From a virus (Duplodnaviria; Caudoviricetes), in IMG/VR virus record IMGVR_UViG_3300010398_000020, positions 1 through 36,528 of that record: a stretch of DNA of 36,528 bases; one strand, 5' to 3'. Shown piece by piece: positions 1,086 to 30,731 of this stretch. How positions within the stretch are numbered: the first letter of the stretch is position 1; the number at the start of each line of letters is the position of its first letter. The notes beneath the pieces were generated by a model that made no database searches, was not told the DNA's origin, and was given only the letters and a program-made list of their open reading frames with translations. Both the position numbers and the translations under genes were made by a program.

Positions 1086-1312
1086 CAGCGTTGGGAGTGC
1101 GGCGGCTCTGGTTGCGCCTAGGGTGGAGCCGGCTACAAGCGTCGGCCTACCTTGGGCTCAACGAAAAAACTATTCGCCGCTGGAACAAGGACGGCGCGCC
1201 ACCTCATGCGTCGCGCGTGTTGACGTTGCTCGCCGCCGGCAAAATCAGCAAAGAAAGCGCCGCCGTGCTCTTGTCGAGCGATTACGAGCGGCGCCTTCCT
1301 GCGGCGAGTTAA
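1082..1312 (+). CDS. Small HTH DNA-binding protein (XRE/Cro-like)
   Basis: LGWSRLQASAYLGLNEKTIRRW fits an HTH pattern. Confidence 0.7.
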   Translation: MTALGVRRLWLRLGWSRLQASAYLGLNEKTIRRWNKDGAPPHASRVLTLLAAGKISKESAAVLLSSDYERRLPAAS

Positions 1313-1941
1313 GCGAAGCCGGCAACGCGGCGGCGCGTGCGGAACGCAAACGCGAGCCCGACGAAGCCGAGTATCATCATCGCCCATGTGGACGGTTCCG
1401 GCACCGCGCCGGCGGCAACGTCAACACGATAGTGCTCGAAATCGGTAATACTGCCCCCGGTATCGAGTAGCACGTACTGATTGATCGTCTCGCCGTTGAT
1501 GGCCGCCAACGTAAACCCGGACTGTGCGTTCGGGTCGATTGCACCGAGGTTGAACGTGAACAACATAGTGCCGCCGCCTTGTTCGTTGGCAGTCACAAAC
1601 GCGGTTACGTTGCCGGTGCCCTTTAGGGAGAAAACGTCAGTGGTAGTTGCCAACACACTAGTGTTGGTCGCATCAAAGACTTGCACTTGCAAGTCAGAGG
1701 TGTTGGCAATCTTAATGTCGTTGCCATTCGCCGCGCCCACAAACAGCGGGTTTCCAGATAGGTCGGTGAAATCAACGGTGCCTTGGTTTTGACCGTTGAA
1801 ACTCCCAAGAATGAGGCCGCCCGTCTGACTGTCAAACACCACGTTGTCACCCGTGCCACTCAGTTTATCGAGTAGAGTGACGTCAGCCATCGCAGCAACA
1901 GGCGTCATTGCCAGTGCCGACGCAAGCAATAGTCGCTTCAT
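1309..1941 (-). CDS. PEP-CTERM (PEPxxWA-CTERM) sorting-domain surface protein
   Basis: Signal peptide MKRLLLASALAMTPVAAMA|D. C-terminal VPEPSTWAMMILGFVGLAFAF followed by basic RTRRR. GGAGG RBS. Confidence 0.93.
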   Translation of the reverse strand: MKRLLLASALAMTPVAAMADVTLLDKLSGTGDNVVFDSQTGGLILGSFNGQNQGTVDFTDLSGNPLFVGAANGNDIKIANTSDLQVQVFDATNTSVLATTTDVFSLKGTGNVTAFVTANEQGGGTMLFTFNLGAIDPNAQSGFTLAAINGETINQYVLLDTGGSITDFEHYRVDVAAGAVPEPSTWAMMILGFVGLAFAFRTRRRVAGFA

Positions 1942-2504: not shown

Positions 2505-2748
2505 TGCGCAAGTCTAACGGGACCCGCCGGCGCGGCGGCGTCCATTTGGGTTTCCACAAGACAACGAGCGACGCCCGATCCGGGCGGATCGCTGCCGGGT
2601 CGATCCCGGTCAACGACGCGACTTGGCGGAGGTAGCGGTAGGGCACTTGCTTCCACCGGCGCACCGCTTGCCGGCTGACCGGCGGGCGGAGCAACCGGGC
2701 CAATTCGCCGAGTTGGCGGTTATCCCGCAATTCTTGCAACACATCCAT
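2494..2748 (-). CDS. Cro/YdaS-like HTH transcriptional regulator (84 aa)
   Basis: True start MDVLQEL at 2748 with GAGGTGG RBS. LARLL...VSRQAVRRW...VP...TGI...IRPD is the Cro/YdaS pattern. Confidence 0.8.
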   Translation of the reverse strand: MDVLQELRDNRQLGELARLLRPPVSRQAVRRWKQVPYRYLRQVASLTGIDPAAIRPDRASLVVLWKPKWTPPRRRVPLDLRNEI

Positions 2749-2792
2749 TGACCACCTCGCCGGCACACTATAGCGTCCGACAACCGATTGTC
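2748..2792 (+). promoter_or_regulatory. Divergent control region: sigma70-like promoter plus palindromic operator
   Basis: TTGACC (2748-2753)-17 bp-TAGCGT (2771-2776). Inverted repeat GACAA-ccga-TTGTC (2779-2792). Lies in the 60-bp gap between divergent genes. Confidence 0.55.
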
Positions 2793-2808
2793 CATAGGAG
2801 GAGACAAA

Positions 2809-2964
2809 ATGGCAGACCCGGAATTTGATACGGACAAACCAACGACGGGAGCGGCGCCGGCAACGACGTTCAAAAGAGAAGAACCCAACAAACTTGAACG
2901 CATACTTGACGCTTTGCGAGAGCAAGCGCGCGAAATCCAAGAAATTAAAAAGATGCTGCGGTAA
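2809..2964 (+). CDS. Small coiled-coil protein (51 aa; not in ORF track)
   Basis: GGAGGAG RBS. MADPEFDTDK...LERILDALREQAREIQEIKKMLR. TAA directly abuts the next ATG. Confidence 0.75.
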   Translation: MADPEFDTDKPTTGAAPATTFKREEPNKLERILDALREQAREIQEIKKMLR

Positions 2965-3867
2965 ATGCCCGATCCGCAAAATCGAACCGTTAGCGCGACC
3001 GAAAGCCCCGCGCTATTCAACGCGAGCCCGTATCTGACGCGGTGGATGCTTTGGCGCAAATACGCGCGCGGCGACAAGATCGAGCCGGCCGAAACCGAGC
3101 GCATGTTTTGGGGAAAGGAATTGCAGCCGCTTCTAACAAAGCGCGCCGCTCACGATTTGAAACTTGAGGTGCACGATAACGTCCACGATCATTACATGCG
3201 CCATTCAACGCTGTTGATGGGGTGCACGCGCGATGCGTTGATTTACGATCCTAACCGCGGGTGGGGTTCGTTGGAGTGCAAATGCGTATTCGATTACGGG
3301 GTGTGGTTTCGAGAATGGCAAAGCGGGCAAGTTGTGCCGCGTCATTATGAAATCCAACTCCAACACCAAATGATCTGCGGCGACGGCGAGCAACCCCATG
3401 CGTGGGGTGTGATTGCCGCGTGGGTGTGCGGTGAAATGCACTATTTCGAGCGCGCGCCGATCGAGCAATTTCATGGTGAGCTATTGACAGCGATCGGGCA
3501 ATTTTGGGCAAGCTTGAGCGGCCCGGAGCCGGAACCATTCGGCGAAGCGGTGGAATACCCGTTGCTGCGCGAGCTATTCGATCCGCCACCGGGCGCCGTC
3601 AAAGAGGACCCGCAAAACTACAAACTCGCGGAAATTGCGCGGCTCTACAAGGACTTTCGCGCCAACTATCGCTTCTATGAAAAGGGCGCAGTAGCGGCGC
3701 GGCTTGAGTTGTTGAAAGCGATCGGCCACGACCATGAAGCGCTGCACCTCGCCGGCGACATTTGGGTGCGCGTGACCAAGACGAAGAACAACAATTTGAT
3801 GGTTAAGGTGGAAATCCCCGATGTTCTACCGGACGAAATCATTGATGCTTCGGAGGGTATCAGCTAG
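2965..3867 (+). CDS. YqaJ-like viral recombinase exonuclease (lambda exo family)
   Basis: SATE..A...SPY, WG..L, CTRD, LECK and Y.IQLQHQM motifs. Upstream of RecT. Confidence 0.88.
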   Translation: MPDPQNRTVSATESPALFNASPYLTRWMLWRKYARGDKIEPAETERMFWGKELQPLLTKRAAHDLKLEVHDNVHDHYMRHSTLLMGCTRDALIYDPNRGWGSLECKCVFDYGVWFREWQSGQVVPRHYEIQLQHQMICGDGEQPHAWGVIAAWVCGEMHYFERAPIEQFHGELLTAIGQFWASLSGPEPEPFGEAVEYPLLRELFDPPPGAVKEDPQNYKLAEIARLYKDFRANYRFYEKGAVAARLELLKAIGHDHEALHLAGDIWVRVTKTKNNNLMVKVEIPDVLPDEIIDASEGIS

Positions 3868-4414
3868 CGCGCATAATTGCGCGGCGATCATTGTTGGTAG
3901 CCTGCCGTTGCTACCGTTATTAGGAAAGGATGGGTGGCGCTATGCGTTGGTGGCAATATGTTTTGTCTATCATCTTTGGTTCCGTCGCGGGTGCCTTGGG
4001 AATTTCGTGTGTGGTCTTATTAACTCAAAACCTATCGGACCGATGTACGCCGCGCTCTATAGCGCCGGCTTCGCAACCATCTTCTACAGTGTTGCCGTCC
4101 CCTTCGACTTACTGGCGCTGTACGTTTTTTGTCAGTGGGTTTGTTTGCGAGCGACCGGCCACACGATACCGGGATACATAACGCAATGGAGGCCAACGAT
4201 GACTAACATAAAAGACTTAAAAGAGGGAGATTTTGCGGAAATTAAAATCACTAGCAATGTTGTGTCACGCGAGGCGGCTGATGCCCTTCTCCGTGACTAT
4301 CCCAATTTAGCTCCGCTAACGGTCGGCCGGCCAGAACATGCCGAGCATGAAACGCTACTCGTTGATGAATGGGGTCGCTACGTTATCGTGACGAACGCGA
4401 TGCGACGACAATAG
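3845..4414 (+). CDS. Multi-TM membrane protein (RDD-like N-part) with an in-frame soluble C-terminal segment
   Basis: 3-4 hydrophobic stretches. MLRRVSA...LGNFVCGL resembles RDD motifs. Internal GGAGG+ATG at 4199. Confidence 0.55.
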   Translation: MLRRVSASAHNCAAIIVGSLPLLPLLGKDGWRYALVAICFVYHLWFRRGCLGNFVCGLINSKPIGPMYAALYSAGFATIFYSVAVPFDLLALYVFCQWVCLRATGHTIPGYITQWRPTMTNIKDLKEGDFAEIKITSNVVSREAADALLRDYPNLAPLTVGRPEHAEHETLLVDEWGRYVIVTNAMRRQ

Positions 4415-7218: not shown

Positions 7219-8346
7219 CTAGACCCAATCCCAATCCACCTTGCCCTTGCCGCTGATCCCTACGGCGCGCGCGAGCGCCGGCGAGAGGTCGATCGCGGCG
7301 TCGTTGGTCGGCACCGTGCCGGCGTTGGGTCCCGACGGCAGAGGCGTCCGGTTGGCGTAGCACGTGACCGCGATCGCGGTTTCATCCCCGAACACATATC
7401 GGTCGTCATCCACCGTCCACGGGCCTTTGTCCCTCACCTTTCCCTGCGCGGTTTGTCGCGTGGACGTGTTCCACACCTGCACCCCCCGGTCGCGCATGGC
7501 GGCGTCCGCTACGTTCGCCGGCAAGGCGACGTATAGCTCCGTGTCGTTGAGCGCGTCATAGGGCGGATAAGCCGAATTGTTGGGGTCGGAGGCCCCGCCG
7601 AACACGGTGGCGGTGATGTTCTTGTGGTTTGCCTGCGGCCCTTCCTCTGGCGGCGCTGGCTCAACCGGGCCGAACACCTGATGCCCGTTGACGTAGACGG
7701 TGACGTTGCCGGCCGCGGTTATGTCGATCTGCCCCGGCTCTGGCGGCACCGGTTCCGGTTCCGGTTCCGGTCCCGGCTCTGGCTCTGGCGGCGTCGGTCC
7801 CGGTATCGGCACCCCGCCAACCGCCTCCGCGATCCCCCGGCACACCGCATCAAAGTTAGCGTTGTACGCGCTCGCGTCGCCGGTAGACGAAACAAAGCAC
7901 ACCTCGATTAGAATTGCCGGCTTTGCGGTGTTGTTCAGGAAAAATAAATCGGTGCGTCTCTTGGCGCCCCTGTTTGGTATCGTTGCCGCGCCCGCAATCG
8001 CCGCCGAAACCTTTGCCGAGAGCGTTTGCTGAGTGACGTACAGACACTCTGCACCAATTTTGTTGCTGGTCTGCGGTGAACTTGAATTGAAATGTACCGA
8101 CACATCATAATCGCGCGATTGCGAATTGTGCCAATTGACAATGCGGTTGAGGTTTTCGTTTTGCGTGCGCGACACGTCGTCGTTGAATGGCCCGCGCACG
8201 GTGACGCCTGCCGCGGCAAGATTAGAAGCGACCGCGGCGACTACCCGGCGCGCTTCGTCTACCTCATCGAGATACGGCGGCACCGGGTTTCCGCGCGCGC
8301 CTCTGATATACAACCCGTGACCGCTGGAAATCGCGATCGTTGCCAT
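7219..8346 (-). CDS. Endolysin: N-acetylmuramoyl-L-alanine amidase (Amidase_3) + Pro/Glu linker + RlpA/DPBB-like C-terminal domain
   Basis: ISSGHG, E, SVHFNS and PAILIEVCFV amidase motifs. C-terminal V.DKGP...IDLSPALARAVG fits a double-psi barrel signature. Confidence 0.9.
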   Translation of the reverse strand: MATIAISSGHGLYIRGARGNPVPPYLDEVDEARRVVAAVASNLAAAGVTVRGPFNDDVSRTQNENLNRIVNWHNSQSRDYDVSVHFNSSSPQTSNKIGAECLYVTQQTLSAKVSAAIAGAATIPNRGAKRRTDLFFLNNTAKPAILIEVCFVSSTGDASAYNANFDAVCRGIAEAVGGVPIPGPTPPEPEPGPEPEPEPVPPEPGQIDITAAGNVTVYVNGHQVFGPVEPAPPEEGPQANHKNITATVFGGASDPNNSAYPPYDALNDTELYVALPANVADAAMRDRGVQVWNTSTRQTAQGKVRDKGPWTVDDDRYVFGDETAIAVTCYANRTPLPSGPNAGTVPTNDAAIDLSPALARAVGISGKGKVDWDWV

Positions 8347-8357
8347 GACACGCCCTC

Positions 8358-8612
8358 CTATTCGTGTGGTATAATGTCAGACGATTTCTGTGGCACGATA
8401 CACCGCGACAGCATTTCTTGCGCCTTTGAATTGCTGTCGATTAGTTGCTTCATAATTACATCGCGCGCCGTCGCGACATTCATCGAGGCCCACGTGACCA
8501 TCCCTATAAAGATCACGTTGAGCACCAACACGCCGAGCAATAGCGGGTTGTCTTTTAAGCTCGTTATCAACGTCCGGGCGGTTTGGCCGCCTTCCTCGAC
8601 TGCGCCATTCAT
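8358..8612 (-). CDS. Putative holin-like single-TM protein
   Basis: One TM (PLLLGVLVLNVIFIGMVTWA), immediately upstream of the endolysin. Confidence 0.6.
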   Translation of the reverse strand: MNGAVEEGGQTARTLITSLKDNPLLLGVLVLNVIFIGMVTWASMNVATARDVIMKQLIDSNSKAQEMLSRCIVPQKSSDIIPHE

Positions 8613-25978: not shown

Positions 25979-26986
25979 TTAGATGTTGAGGAATTGGAGG
26001 TTGGTGAACTTGCCGTGCGCTTTGCACTTATGGTCTACCAACTCCAACAAGGTTAAGAGTGCACCCACATAGCCAAATTGGCCGTTCGCCAAGGTGCTTT
26101 CAAAGCCGGTGAAATAGAACGCGGCTTTTTCGTGGACATACAAACTCAGATAGTCGTTGTTGATGAGATACAACGTGCCTTCCGGGCAATACGGATCGGC
26201 ATAGAACGGGACGCCAGCAACGTCGAGCGCACGGAACAAGGCTTGCACCTTGCCGGCGCCGAACGCGAGATTTGGCGTCACGTTGTAGCGTTCTTGTGAG
26301 GTGAAATCCTGCGCGAGTTGGGTCCACGTGCCAAACCCCAACAGGCCCATTTTAGGAATTTCGCCGGTCGCCTTCGTAACCTGCGCGATGTATTGCAGCA
26401 TGAGGTTACGGGTCGGCGCGGTGGGCGCGCCGTTGTTGACGACTTGCGAACGCCAGAAAGTTTGCGTTGATCGGTTGAGCCCGCCGTAGGTGGTGGCAAC
26501 CGTTCCGTCATCAATCGCCGCCGGCAAGCCGATCATCGCTTGCGTCTGCGCGATGTTGTTGAACACGTCGGTCGCAAACCTGTCGAGTGTGACGTTGGTT
26601 GCGTCGTTCATGCGCGCTTCGATGAGCGGCACAACGCTGTAGTCGATTTGAACAAGCCCCTCCATTCCGAGGAACGGAATTGCGGTCAAATAACCCTTCA
26701 AATTAAATTCGGCGTTCTGAATGCCGGGTGTGACGCCGGGTTGATTGAATGACCCGTCATAGCCGACGTTCTGCACCGTCACCATCGGGTTGCCCTGCAA
26801 CGGAACGGTGATCGGCGACAAGCCGCCGGACGCGACTTGCGCGTGCGCGAGCAACGCCGCCATTGTCGGCGTTGATTTCCAGAGTTGCACGAACACCTTT
26901 GGCAAGAATGCTCGGCGGACTGTTGCCGCAAGCTCGGCCGCTACCGCGCCTTGTTGCGGAATTATGCCAGAACCAAATTGCGGCAT
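25979..26986 (-). CDS. Major capsid protein
   Basis: 335 aa. GGGGAG RBS. GL.A.IDDG...YGGL.RS...W and G.P..ADPYCP.G.LY..N motifs. Follows the scaffold gene. Confidence 0.85.
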   Translation of the reverse strand: MPQFGSGIIPQQGAVAAELAATVRRAFLPKVFVQLWKSTPTMAALLAHAQVASGGLSPITVPLQGNPMVTVQNVGYDGSFNQPGVTPGIQNAEFNLKGYLTAIPFLGMEGLVQIDYSVVPLIEARMNDATNVTLDRFATDVFNNIAQTQAMIGLPAAIDDGTVATTYGGLNRSTQTFWRSQVVNNGAPTAPTRNLMLQYIAQVTKATGEIPKMGLLGFGTWTQLAQDFTSQERYNVTPNLAFGAGKVQALFRALDVAGVPFYADPYCPEGTLYLINNDYLSLYVHEKAAFYFTGFESTLANGQFGYVGALLTLLELVDHKCKAHGKFTNLQFLNI

Positions 26987-27005: not shown

Positions 27006-27542
27006 TTACGGGCGGAACACGCCCGTTTTGATTTCGTCAATCACCTTCACGGCTTCGTCCGTCGCCCACTTTTGCGGGTTTTCAAACAAACCGTCGGCTT
27101 GCGGAAATTCCCACGTGCGCCCGTTACTCAACGCGGCGTCGCGCGCGACACCCGGCTTGCGGCGGGACAAATACAATTCCTCGCCGATTTCGTAATCGGT
27201 GAGCCCCGCCTTTTCCATGATCTTGTCAATCTCTTTCATTTCGTCGTCGGTGTAGCGGCCGGCGACGATTTTGCGCTGCGCCTCGATAGCGTTGATTATC
27301 TTGTCGTGATCGGCCTTCTCTTTGGCCTTTCGTTCGCGCTCCGCCATTTCCTCGCGCAAATCCGCAACGTCGTCCGCCGGGAATGTGCGGGTCGGGTCGA
27401 TCTTTTTGACCAGTGCGCGAAACGGGCGCCCGGTTTCCTTGTTGCGACCAAGCGCGATTGCAAGGCGGCCGGCCGCCATCAATGTCGCTTCGTCAAACTC
27501 TGGCGTCGGTTGCGCGGTGTGGGGTTGGGGTTCGCCTGCCAT
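27006..27542 (-). CDS. Probable capsid scaffolding protein
   Basis: Charged helical 178 aa directly upstream of the major capsid gene. Confidence 0.65.
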   Translation of the reverse strand: MAGEPQPHTAQPTPEFDEATLMAAGRLAIALGRNKETGRPFRALVKKIDPTRTFPADDVADLREEMAERERKAKEKADHDKIINAIEAQRKIVAGRYTDDEMKEIDKIMEKAGLTDYEIGEELYLSRRKPGVARDAALSNGRTWEFPQADGLFENPQKWATDEAVKVIDEIKTGVFRP

Positions 27543-27952: not shown

Positions 27953-28153
27953 TCAGACCGGCCGGCCCTTGCGGGTCAAATCGCCCTTTTCGAGCGCGAG
28001 CGGTCGATCGGCTGTCGGCATATCGCCGGCGTTACCGAAGCCGCCGAGTTGCGGATACGACGACACATTTTGAAACATGCCGTTTTGTTTCTTGCGCATA
28101 CCGAGGTCGGACCCCGACACGCCGCGCGGTTTGAGATACGTGCTCTCTGCCAT
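27953..28153 (-). CDS. Small hypothetical protein
   Basis: AGGAGAGG RBS. 66 aa. Confidence 0.75.
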   Translation of the reverse strand: MAESTYLKPRGVSGSDLGMRKKQNGMFQNVSSYPQLGGFGNAGDMPTADRPLALEKGDLTRKGRPV

Positions 28154-28164
28154 GTTTGCCTCTC

Positions 28165-28656
28165 CTACTCCTCGCCTCCGCCCGGTGCGGGCGGAGGTGG
28201 AACGGGTGGACCGCCGGCGGCGCCGGGTCCTCCGGGCGGCGGCGCACCGCCTCCGGGTGGCAAGGCGGCCGGCGCGATACCCGGCGGCGGAGCCGCTTGC
28301 ATAGGCCCGCCGCCTCTCCGTGCCGCCAATGCCATTTGTTGAACCGCGCCCGGCACCATCTGTTGCGTTTCCTGTCCCGCAAAGTTTGGCGCGAGCGCGC
28401 GAATTGCGTGCATCGAAGCGAGATATTTTTTGGAGCCGATCGGATATGCGGCCATTGCCTTGTGGAGCCCTTGCAACACCATGACAATGATTGCGTCGGC
28501 CGCCGCCTCTTGACCCGCGCCGGCGCCCGCCGCTGTCATTGGACTACCACCGGGTCCGCCGGGTCCGCCCATCGGCGAGCCGGGGAGTGACGGACGTCCG
28601 GGGAGTGGACCGCCGGGTGTTGGGGGTGGAGCCGCGCCGGGTACTAGTGGTGGCAT
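28165..28656 (-). CDS. Pro/Gly-rich hypothetical protein with a central helical hairpin
   Basis: 163 aa. First gene after a putative promoter. No RBS. Confidence 0.7.
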   Translation of the reverse strand: MPPLVPGAAPPPTPGGPLPGRPSLPGSPMGGPGGPGGSPMTAAGAGAGQEAAADAIIVMVLQGLHKAMAAYPIGSKKYLASMHAIRALAPNFAGQETQQMVPGAVQQMALAARRGGGPMQAAPPPGIAPAALPPGGGAPPPGGPGAAGGPPVPPPPAPGGGEE

Positions 28657-28664
28657 GGCGCGTA

Positions 28665-28700
28665 TAAATAGCGCCGTTTAACTGATTGGTCAGCTTACAG
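28665..28700 (-). promoter_or_regulatory. Putative late promoter for the head genes
   Basis: CTGTAAG-CTGACC-17 bp-TATTTA. The 12-bp CTGTAAGCTGAC is shared with the element at 28989-29000. Confidence 0.55.
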
Positions 28701-28702
28701 AT

Positions 28703-28736
28703 AACAAAGCCCCCGCCGGCTCAAAACGACGGGGGC
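28703..28736 (-). terminator. Rho-independent terminator after the micropeptide genes
   Basis: Minus strand GCCCCCGTCG-ttttgagc-CGGCGGGGGC-TTTGTT. Confidence 0.75.
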
Positions 28737-28778
28737 AAGGTGAGTTGTGCGCTTGAGTGGTAGTGCGTGCGAGTTCGC

Positions 28779-28817
28779 TTACCGTCTCCCTCGCCGATGT
28801 TTCCTTCGTCGTGCCAT
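28779..28817 (-). CDS. Arg-rich micropeptide MARRRKHRRGRR (12 aa)
   Basis: GGAG RBS, ATG at 28817, TAA stop. Paralogous to the adjacent micro-ORF but with different Arg codons. Confidence 0.7.
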   Translation of the reverse strand: MARRRKHRRGRR

Positions 28818-28872
28818 TTCTACACTCCGATCAAAGAGTTGATCCCGAATTGTCGAAGCCGGTTGTTAGGGT

Positions 28873-28908
28873 CTACCGGCGACCGCGACGACGACGACGT
28901 GCCATCAT
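28873..28908 (-). CDS. Arg-rich micropeptide MMARRRRRGRR (10-11 aa)
   Basis: Strong GAGGGAGG RBS, ATG-ATG-GCA start, TAG stop. Confidence 0.72.
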   Translation of the reverse strand: MMARRRRRGRR

Positions 28909-28965
28909 ATGCCTCCCTCGTTGTTACCTCTCGGCGGGATTGCCGGGGCAAAGGGTCGATAGCCC

Positions 28966-29000
28966 ATCATAGAGAATAAACGGCGCCCGTCAGCTTACAG
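28966..29000 (-). promoter_or_regulatory. Putative promoter for the micropeptide cassette
   Basis: CTGTAAG-CTGACG-16 bp-TATGAT, starting right after the portal stop codon. Confidence 0.6.
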
Positions 29001-30731
29001 CTAGGCCGCCTTCTTGCCGCGCGTCCCGCCGCCGGGTGCACCTTGCGCCTTGGCGGCGGCGGCGGCTTGCGCCATCTGATTTTCTTGCGCCACCATCTTG
29101 CGAATGCCGGTAATCATCGCGTCGGCGCCCGGCGGGTTGAGCATTCGGATAAACATTTCGCGGTCGATCGACTTCGCCTTCAACAACAACGCGGCTAGCT
29201 CGCGGCTCTCGTTGGCAAACAGCGGCGAGTGCGAGTGACCGCTAATCCGCAAATTCCAATCGTCCGTTGCAAATTGCGCCGGATAGAATTGCTCGCCGCT
29301 TTTCACCCGGAGTTTTTCTTTCGAGTTGCGCTGTACCAACTTGATCCCGAGGTCACCCATCTTAACTAGCGGTTGTTCCATGTTGACGGCGATCTTGCGA
29401 ATGCGGCTAGAGCCGGTCGCCGCGAGTTGCTTGGCGTGGCCGCCGCCGCGGACGCCCGCCTCGCCTTTGCCGGTGACGGTTTCCGTGAGGCCCGACGCCT
29501 CCAAAAAGATTGACCCGATTTCCTTAAACTCGGTGAACAAATCTTGCGGCATTTCCGGCCGCATCGGCTCTACTTTCGCATTCGGGAGTTGGTCGAGCAC
29601 CCACGTGCCGGGACCGCCGAACGCACCGGCTTTCTCATCGTTGAGGCCCATGAACCCGGAGAACGCTTTAGGTGGGTCAACTTGCATTTCCAGAATTTCG
29701 GCAATTTGATCGAGCCGCTCGTTCGTCCACCGCTGGAGCGGAATAAGCCTGTCACAGTGCGCCTCTCCCCAAAAGAAATCCGGCAAGGTAAACGGCGTGA
29801 ACGGCACAAACGGGTGTTCGCCGGCCATGTAGGGGTTGGTTTCGGTGTTCCAATTTGCCGGGTCCGTTTCCGATCGGCGGCCTAGCGTCGCGATCGTCTC
29901 ACGGCTGTCGGTGAGGATAATGTCGGGTTGCGCAATCGTGCACACGACGTAATCATCGTGCACGTCATCCCACATCCACACTTCCTGAAATTCCACCGTC
30001 GGAAAATCGTTTTTCGGCTCATAGGTTGGAACCGGCGAGAACACCGCGGGCGCCATGCCGGCAATGTTGCCGGTGATATTGGTGCCGCCGGTGGCGCTAA
30101 TCATCAGCGCTTGAAACACCGGCGGGTACTCGGCGCGCTCGGTTCCCTGTGTCGTGCCTAGCTTTTTGATTTCGTCCTTCAAGCCGGCGCGCAACAGCCG
30201 GACAACCGCATTGTCCCACGGAATACGATAGCGATGTGTGAAAGCCTCTTGGTGGTCGAGGTCGGTATTGCTTTCATCAAAAACGCCGAAATTGGCGGGG
30301 TTGACAAGGGTGCCGTATAGCTGGCGCCGCTCATTTGACCATCCCATTTTGATGAACATTGTGTCGTTAACGAGCGACCACAACATTGCGTCGCCGGCGA
30401 GATAGGCAAGACCGCTATCGCGAAACACGTCATTCCAATGATCCTGCAATGCTAACGCTTGATCGACTAGTGCTTGCTCTTTGTTTTGCCCGACAGACAA
30501 ATCGTATTTGGCATAGTCGGCGGCGTATAAGAATGAGGCCACTAGGTCGAGGTGTGCTTGCAGCCGGTTGAATTTGACGCTCTCGGTTCTGTTGTTGTCG
30601 GTCCCGTACAGAAAGAACCGGCGCCGCAAATCATATAGGCTTCGCCGTTCCTCGCGCGACGACAGGCAAATGTCGCGCACCTCAAGCACCTTGTTGTCGC
30701 GGAATTTCTTGTTTGAGAGTGGGATTATCAT
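29001..30731 (-). CDS. Portal protein
   Basis: 576 aa downstream of terL. N.L, V.P.NF, HPFVPF...FWG...LIPLQ..N pattern and a helical C-terminus. Confidence 0.85.
   Translation of the reverse strand: MIIPLSNKKFRDNKVLEVRDICLSSREERRSLYDLRRRFFLYGTDNNRTESVKFNRLQAHLDLVASFLYAADYAKYDLSVGQNKEQALVDQALALQDHWNDVFRDSGLAYLAGDAMLWSLVNDTMFIKMGWSNERRQLYGTLVNPANFGVFDESNTDLDHQEAFTHRYRIPWDNAVVRLLRAGLKDEIKKLGTTQGTERAEYPPVFQALMISATGGTNITGNIAGMAPAVFSPVPTYEPKNDFPTVEFQEVWMWDDVHDDYVVCTIAQPDIILTDSRETIATLGRRSETDPANWNTETNPYMAGEHPFVPFTPFTLPDFFWGEAHCDRLIPLQRWTNERLDQIAEILEMQVDPPKAFSGFMGLNDEKAGAFGGPGTWVLDQLPNAKVEPMRPEMPQDLFTEFKEIGSIFLEASGLTETVTGKGEAGVRGGGHAKQLAATGSSRIRKIAVNMEQPLVKMGDLGIKLVQRNSKEKLRVKSGEQFYPAQFATDDWNLRISGHSHSPLFANESRELAALLLKAKSIDREMFIRMLNPPGADAMITGIRKMVAQENQMAQAAAAAKAQGAPGGGTRGKKAA

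Follow-up and report, generated by a model that had tools for sequence, protein, structure and literature searches.

The window analyzed here (the whole stretch of DNA under study, 36,528 nt of a single viral record that is ∼91% complete) encodes two very short, strongly basic peptides between its portal and head genes. Comparison with related phage sequences indicates that these micro-ORFs are real genes and that they belong to a near-universal conserved family in the head module. Of 166 distinct relatives among the matches listed, 164 have a strongly basic micro-ORF in the interval from portal to head genes (157 found by an automatic rule and seven by eye). The conserved trait, read from 182 predicted peptides, is charge rather than sequence, and the family apparently has not been described so far. 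We propose that the peptide may be a late-made, non-specific polycation that partly neutralizes DNA during packaging and remains in the head, a proposal for which we find the case evenly balanced.

Gene context of the window

On the minus strand, the gene for the terminase large subunit is followed by the portal gene, a Pro/Gly-rich gene, two small genes, a scaffold-like gene, and the gene for the major capsid protein; tail genes, probable ejection genes, and an endolysin lie beyond it on the same strand. The portal gene (29001–30731, 576 aa), which is the upstream anchor of the micro-genes, matches PHROG 1216 (portal, E 6.7e-6) and has homologues with PF23899/PF16510. The Pro/Gly-rich gene (28165–28656, 163 aa) is the first long gene of the head block; it matches no family in PHROGs, Pfam, or NCBIfam, and its homologues are a constant downstream neighbor in relatives. 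The scaffold-like gene (27006–27542) is named by position with a weak feature lead, its nearest named cluster being labeled PF09306 on 15% of members (score 0.85, a lead only). The major capsid protein (25979–26986) is assigned the HK97 fold from PHROG 9953, NF033394 (capsid_maj_Podo), and Foldseek. Foldseek matches the capsid model to the Mic1, A-1(L), SU10, and HK97 capsids at 8–17% identity and returned no solved relative above 17%. No head protease family was matched among the head genes scanned, and an Rfam scan of the window returned no families.

The nearest annotated genomes are two uncultured ones with portal identities of 31–32%. Cultured phages match through the capsid protein only (24–28% identity), and none of the 15 phage records matching this protein is a cultured close relative.

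Several other genes of the window have features of their own. A 66-aa gene of the head block (27953–28153, minus strand) is 56–82% conserved in relatives, lacks a PHROG match, and is a possible minor head protein. A secreted protein encoded at 1309–1941 (minus strand) carries a PEPxxWA-CTERM sorting domain (NF035944, above cut-off); this bacterial surface-protein tag is unusual in a phage and is a possible hint to the host group. The 599-aa tail gene had no match in a PDB sequence search, and its putative ‘nozzle’ label is taken from position only. The lysis region (7219–8612, minus strand) codes for an endolysin of the amidase type and a single membrane protein of 84 aa, with no spanin pair evident. 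Neither the window nor any of five near-complete relatives has a tyrosine integrase; one of the five carries a resolvase-family gene.

Two micro-ORFs behind the portal gene

The gap of 344 nt that follows the portal gene (28657–29000) holds no minus-strand ORF of at least 60 aa. The initial annotation had placed in it a self-contained unit of a promoter-like element, two Arg-rich ORFs with ribosome binding sites (RBSs), and an intrinsic terminator. Both ORFs are indeed present on the minus strand with Shine-Dalgarno (SD) sequences. Micro-ORF1 (28908/28905–28873, minus strand) encodes (M)MARRRRRGRR; its SD, GGAGG (28912–28916, minus strand), has an A/C-rich stretch ahead of it and stands 6 nt ahead of the second ATG, so the 10-aa form (+7) starting at 28905 is likelier than the 11-aa form. 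Micro-ORF2 (28817–28779, minus strand) encodes MARRRKHRRGRR (12 aa, +8 plus His) and is preceded by GGAG (28825–28828, minus strand) 7 nt before its ATG; tandem copies are also found in relatives. The Arg codons are split between the two ORFs as first described: ORF1 uses four CGT, CGC, and CGG, and ORF2 uses CGA, AGG, AGA, and CGG, rare codons that make it an exception to the family norm. No other basic-tailed micro-ORF occurs on either strand of the 36.5-kb window, and none of 2000 dinucleotide shuffles of the gap yielded even one.

The terminator was likewise found (28701–28736, minus strand), with a 10-pair stem containing nine G-C pairs (28736–28709) and a T-rich tail. The promoter-like element, P1 (28966–29000, minus strand), is present as CTGACG-16-TATGAT at 28993–28966, but this match is not significant alone (one found, 0.6 ± 0.9 expected). 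P1 carries the 12-nt repeat CTGTAAGCTGAC at 29000–28989, and a second copy lies in another promoter-like site, P2 (28657–28700, minus strand), directly ahead of the Pro-rich gene. The window has just these two copies of the 12-mer (at 29000 and 28700), each at the upstream edge of a promoter-like site; repeats of at least 12 nt arose in 4 of 2000 shuffles. One relative (L002) has the same motif at both of its promoter-like sites, and pairs of this type share a word of at least 8 nt in 13 of 46 related genomes, versus 10% of cross-genome pairs and 7% of shuffles. The 12-nt word found only at P1 and P2 and the similar within-genome pairs in relatives lend the weak P1 match some support and suggest that the peptide genes and the head block may have a common promoter class.

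A 10-mer, GCGCCGTTTA (28671–28680, 28977–28986), is present in P1 and reverse-complemented in P2; this pairing may be chance, because the 10-mer is found elsewhere in the window too. The Pro-rich first head gene often lacks an SD, and its start lies 7–9 nt behind a TTGAC-N18-TAnnAA-like site (28657–28700, minus strand, in the window, and in relatives). The window copy has no SD, which suggests a leaderless mRNA start. Both MFE and centroid folds place a weak, possible 5′ leader hairpin ahead of ORF1 (28915–28955, minus strand), and the cassette as a whole folds no better than shuffles (z −1.0).

The micro-gene is conserved in three groups of relatives

The relatives fall into three groups, with portals 21–100% identical to that of the window. 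Scans with the portal, two of which kept the best 80 of 317 and the best 80 of 146 matches, yielded 145 loci in all; the portal 3′ end is present in 137 of these, which group into 83 clusters, including one that is identical to the window. The second and third groups were collected with two narrow capsid-protein patterns (best 80 of 575 and best 80 of 316 matches) seeded with loci first found via the peptide pattern, and 19 loci in the second-group scan and five in the third-group scan lack a portal. In IMG/VR, the capsid patterns have matches in ∼2000 stretches. Our automatic rule called ORFs of 7–45 aa with an SD and with R, K, or H at seven or more of the last nine residues.

A scan of related phages for RBS-led basic micro-ORFs, which the initial annotation had proposed, was positive in every group among the matches listed. 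In the portal-selected group, 82 of 83 clusters carry the micro-ORF; with the rule alone, the 0.18 Mb of sequence behind the portal yielded 80 ORFs from 78 clusters. Its five misses are three Gly-/Ser-richer versions, one ORF with an ATA start, and one locus that ends 312 nt past the portal. The second group (portal 30–36% identical) has the micro-ORF in 30 of 31 distinct loci, again among the matches listed, and more than one copy in 17 of the 31 (16 phages with two, one with three); the micro-ORF is absent from L226. All 52 members of the third group (portal 21–30% identical; many contigs of 62–67 kb) carry it, 49 by rule and three by eye, and the few second matches there are probably chance. 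By comparison, flanking DNA gave 12 stray rule matches in 2.8 Mb (portal-selected group, 4 in 1.11 Mb; second group, 2 in 0.57 Mb; third group, 6 in 1.09 Mb).

The association also appears in reverse. Two DNA patterns for the peptide alone retrieved 28 and 21 viral contigs. With the first, 24 contigs have a portal homologue upstream, three matches belong to more distant relatives and are located in their virion module, and one falls in an unrelated long ORF; with the second, a portal, terminase, or capsid homologue lies within the locus in 20 of 21. None of nine annotated outgroup head regions (P22, BPP-1, epsilon15, F116, Bcep22, Mx8, ppBjS10J-1, Jasmine, and ctMlz233) carries the micro-ORF, three stray antisense matches aside.

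Conservation with an RBS across very distant relatives bears out the earlier suggestion of selection on the peptide. The expectation that gene callers would overlook such ORFs also proved correct: MW202753 and MW202825 each hold two unannotated copies, and their annotation calls opposite-strand hypothetical genes where the micro-ORFs sit. Four of the peptide strings have no match in full-text papers, and no description of such a gene in tailed phages appears among the titles and abstract openings listed for the topic; small-ORF catalogues may list the peptides unnamed. Fremin et al. reportedly treated small phage genes from IMG/VR in 2022. The GMSC catalogue is described as calling ORFs from 30 nt up (PMC11364881), so the peptides may be anonymous entries in such collections.

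Charge, length, and dosage of the peptides

The 182 rule-found peptides comprise 157 distinct sequences. Of the 182, 147 carry a net charge of +7 to +9 (full range +5 to +11, median +8), and 169 are 10–16 aa long (median 13 aa). Among same-length pairs, which are unaligned and non-independent, K/R is the commonest exchange, and the Lys share goes up as GC goes down (rho −0.43, a value that ignores kinship). ‘Arg-rich’, as the initial annotation had it, is accurate for the window peptides but not for the family, in which Lys replaces Arg freely and two versions have no Arg at all. Cys and Trp are absent, Pro is nearly so, and hydrophobic residues make up 2–10%; His occurs in 135 of the 182 peptides, and the C-terminal residue is R, K, or H in nearly all and Y in a few. 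Eleven clusters encode the same 12-mer with differing codons, and across 69 same-peptide pairs the differences at codon positions 1, 2, and 3 number 86, 0, and 362. The gene is also retained at a GC content of 0.40–0.50. As in viral basic core and DNA-binding proteins, the products (n = 182) are short, strongly positive, and of low complexity, and their genes are conserved in a late virion-assembly module (164/166, among the matches listed).

Several features bear on dosage. GGAG or GAGG precedes 73 of the 80 close-group ORFs, with AACAA upstream in 20 of 80, and CGT accounts for 31% of micro-ORF Arg codons, compared with 9% for the portal genes and 12% for those of the capsid. Strong SDs and CGT enrichment are consistent with efficient initiation. 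Genomes carry one to five copies of the micro-gene (about four in L028). The strong SDs, codon use, additional promoters, and tandem copies lead us to infer high late expression.

Some peptides (L077, L084, L086, L156, L157, L160, L170, L171, and most of L280–L359) carry an N-terminal extension of 3–22 residues, often with Asn, Tyr, or Phe just ahead of the basic run, that could be a targeting or processing leader. Three more distant relatives hold chained arrays of ∼4–7 Arg-rich ORFs of 14–57 aa (L008 4013–4930; L024 ∼2670–4029, minus strand; L032 3860–4770). These arrays are in the virion module behind a homologue of the window's 599-aa tail gene, and two of the three are broken by an unrelated-looking gene.

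The surrounding architecture varies

In the close group, a terminator-like hairpin lies behind 76 of 78 loci, against a background of 30 of 152 for the finder. The frequency is 17 of 30 in the second group and at background in the third (11 of 49). Placement relative to the portal stop varies as well (n = 76): 15 close-group ORFs overlap or abut it, 42 start 31–140 nt behind it, and 19 start farther away. In the third group the head operon opens with the micro-ORF, whose start lies −1 to 67 nt ahead of the Pro-rich gene (49/49). The self-contained cassette of the initial annotation thus describes this genome but is not a family unit, given the portal-stop overlaps and the third group without a terminator. 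The cassette is reversed in L151 and L167. In eight clusters, of 53 with the terminase placed, the portal block is inverted and the micro-ORF stays with the portal. Every layout links the micro-ORF to the packaging or head transcript.

The inverted block extends from a 175-aa gene through the portal to the micro-ORF, such that the terminase converges on the block and the head genes diverge from it; its carriers are L130, L131, L132, L140, L141, L148, L165, and L168, and in addition L174, L177, L178, L180, L185, L189, and L193. Insertions of ∼0.5–0.6 kb flank an intact cassette on one or both sides in the close relatives L004 (6940–7500) and L053 (3960–5250). In second-group phages, a conserved ORF of ∼54 aa lies between the portal and the micro-ORFs, as in L194 (4573–4737) and L195 (5611–5770), and is retained in L226 (3350–3520) despite loss of the micro-ORF.

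The RNA around the gene is equally inconstant. The distance from stop codon to hairpin ranges from 4 to 130 nt, leader:terminator pairing shows no excess (mean z −0.12, n = 76), and, generic GC hairpin words aside, no flanking hexamer exceeds about one-third of the loci in all three groups. Such variable architecture indicates that the peptide, rather than an RNA layout, is under selection, and argues against attenuation and specific RNA recognition.

Comparison with known systems

By analogy, the peptides come closest to adenovirus mu and to J/VP8 of microviruses, and they recall the basic internal proteins of T4. Adenovirus mu (pX) is described as a very short Arg-rich peptide (19 aa, 100–300 copies per virion) that binds a linear dsDNA genome non-covalently (PMC7998265). 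However, mu is released from a 79-aa precursor by the viral protease and functions in a low-density eukaryotic capsid, whereas the phage peptides are predicted to be made directly at their final length, with no precursor in most cases, in motor-packaging phages with the HK97 fold; the likeness does not come from sequence comparison. Microvirus J/VP8 is described as a small Arg/Lys-rich protein, encoded by a gene of its own, that directs the DNA into the capsid and remains there (PMC11281519). It belongs to ssDNA viruses with a T=1 shell, is ∼38 aa long in SpV4, and has a buried C-terminal aromatic anchor, in contrast to the 10–16-aa peptides with R/K/H ends in these dsDNA tailed phages. Membership of the J/VP8 family is rejected, since these phages have a terminase, a portal, and an HK97-fold capsid rather than ssDNA in a T=1 shell, and the peptides have no C-terminal aromatic anchor.

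T4 IPI, IPII, and IPIII are reported to be basic, to be present at ∼300–370 copies per head, to bind DNA at low salt, and to be non-essential on standard hosts (PMC9026906). They are folded proteins of 8–20 kDa with a 10-aa capsid-targeting sequence, undergo cleavage by gp21, and show little conservation among relatives; by contrast, the micro-gene products are ∼1.5 kDa, near-universal in their lineage, and without a common leader. They are not members of that class, as most begin with the basic run and the minority leaders have no fixed sequence. Like spermidine and spermine, the peptides are polyvalent cations, but they are virus-encoded. Their Arg clusters are broken by Gly, Ser, or His, as in sperm protamines, from which they differ in being much shorter, lacking Cys, and tolerating Lys. 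The promoter-ORF-terminator layout in this genome is also that of lambdoid morons and leader-peptide attenuators; unlike these, the micro-gene is a core gene with variable architecture, and the attenuator tests are negative.

A candidate gene-encoded counter-ion

Repulsion between DNA segments inside phage heads is described as screened by polyvalent cations (PMC6122950, PMC6755088), and the DNA of tailed phages is described as naked and packed with polyamines and cations from the host, in capsids without R-arms (PMC6755088, PMC7096446). The two window ORFs are copies of a conserved micro-gene whose product (10–16 residues, ∼+8) is probably made in bulk late in infection. The peptide would bind new phage DNA non-specifically as a counter-ion, making it easier to pack, and would likely stay inside the head. 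It could enter the procapsid through shell pores, through the portal, or in the grooves of the DNA, and may affect motor load, internal pressure, or particle stability. At hundreds to a few thousand copies, it would cover part of the genome charge and act as a gene-encoded stand-in for polyamines, not as a true protamine coat. Full neutralization of the genome would require ∼9,100 peptides, or ∼17,700 nm3 of peptide versus ∼39,000 nm3 of DNA (∼45%), which makes a protamine coat unlikely and partial neutralization plausible. Of the DNA-neutralizing or condensing role that the initial annotation envisaged, non-specific neutralization of nucleic acid fits best, but full protamine-like condensation is geometrically unlikely.

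The argument for a DNA counter-ion has two parts. Charge, length, and dose appear to be selected without fixed residues, for which a non-specific polycation is the simplest explanation. Given the way phage genes cluster, a constant location within the packaging and head module suggests a part in the packaging of DNA or the assembly of the head. Genomic position and chemistry make DNA the presumed binding partner; position itself is equally compatible with binding to DNA, binding to an acidic protein, and a role in the cytoplasm. Other observations count against a packaged counter-ion. A packaging motor may strip material bound to the DNA, and most members have no capsid-targeting leader or aromatic anchor that would favor retention in the head. 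One phage lacks the gene (L226), one relative has an ATA start, and ORF2 of the window uses rare codons. Absence from the nine annotated outgroup head regions indicates that motor packaging generally manages without the gene.

A late polycation that stays unpackaged would account equally well for charge-only conservation and the dosage signals. Such a peptide could compact or shield replicating phage DNA or the host nucleoid, or bind ribosomes or RNA to turn the cell toward virion production. Possession of its own promoter and terminator is possible, and the cassette is reversed in L151 and L167, so co-translation with head proteins would not be needed. We nonetheless consider a cytoplasmic role unlikely: the gene is fixed in the head module in nearly all relatives among the matches listed (164/166) and moves with the portal in eight rearranged genomes, whereas host-takeover genes usually occupy early, variable regions.

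The peptide might instead help to assemble the procapsid by bridging or screening acidic surfaces of the portal, scaffold, capsid, or Pro-rich neighbor, and then leave or stay as a minor core component. The proteins encoded by the portal, scaffold-like, and capsid genes have a mild net acidity, the micro-ORF overlaps or abuts the portal stop in 15 of 76 close relatives, the 49 third-group phages have it immediately upstream of the Pro-rich gene (−1 to 67 nt), and T4 IPIII is reported to influence head assembly (PMC9026906). We judge an assembly helper quite unlikely, however, because a protein partner normally fixes residues, and here there are 157 distinct peptides with freely diverging paralogues. 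Fusion to the portal C-terminus occurs in 0 of 120 homologues, and the standalone and inverted cassettes suggest that stoichiometric coupling is unneeded.

An accessory role in lysis or at the membrane, in which the cationic peptide would weaken the outer membrane in place of spanins or block superinfection as a ‘moron’, seems very improbable. Cationic peptides can replace spanins, as phiKT gp28 reportedly does, and an Rz spanin family match is found in none of the five near-complete relatives; a promoter-ORF-terminator unit amid head genes is also moron-like. Yet with a hydrophobic share of 2–10% the peptides have no amphipathic face or signal, and the endolysin (7219–8346) is ∼20 kb from the micro-genes. 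The same two observations speak against an amphipathic cationic lysis peptide of the disruptin type. Morons are a sporadic trait of temperate phages, in contrast to a near-universal gene in a lineage where none of six records has a tyrosine integrase; the moron-like trait of an own promoter and terminator is predicted in the window and in many close relatives and is absent in others.

A regulatory leader (an Arg-sensing attenuator, an arrest peptide, or an arginine-rich-motif antiterminator that gates the head genes via the hairpin) is barely credible. The window order of promoter, Arg-rich ORF, terminator, and structural genes invites this idea, as do the rare Arg codons of ORF2. It is largely refuted already by third-group terminators at background (11/49 vs 30/152), pairing without excess, a 4–130-nt spacing, and a family preference for common codons. 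In addition, the terminator has a promoter-like site behind it, two genomes carry the cassette inverted, Arg-free versions exist, R, K, H, and G are mixed with almost no Pro, and the groups have no flanking hexamer in common. That the ORFs are a chance or RNA-level pattern in GC-rich intergenic DNA, in which Arg-rich frames arise easily, has next to no probability given the shuffles (0/2000), the 12-mer kept by eleven clusters with differing codons (86/0/362), and retention at GC 0.40–0.50.

Implications

A core gene of 33–50 nt can escape annotation across genomes, and a search by position and charge finds what homology searches miss. The packing physics of the proposed counter-ion can be tested in vitro with synthetic 10–12-mers, with no need for phage culture.

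Tailed phages are the standard case of naked, pressurized DNA that is neutralized only by host ions and polyamines. The presence of a dedicated, near-universal polycation micro-gene suggests that some phages provide their own counter-ion. We tentatively suggest, with somewhat more doubt than confidence, that this motor-packaging tailed-phage lineage has its own polyamine substitute, a +8 peptide loaded in the head that tunes packaging force, pressure, and ejection. If so, the peptide would be among the smallest products of conserved viral core genes, and its frequent His would add charge at low pH outside the cell and shed it upon entry. Such a peptide would overturn the rule that tailed phages pack naked DNA.
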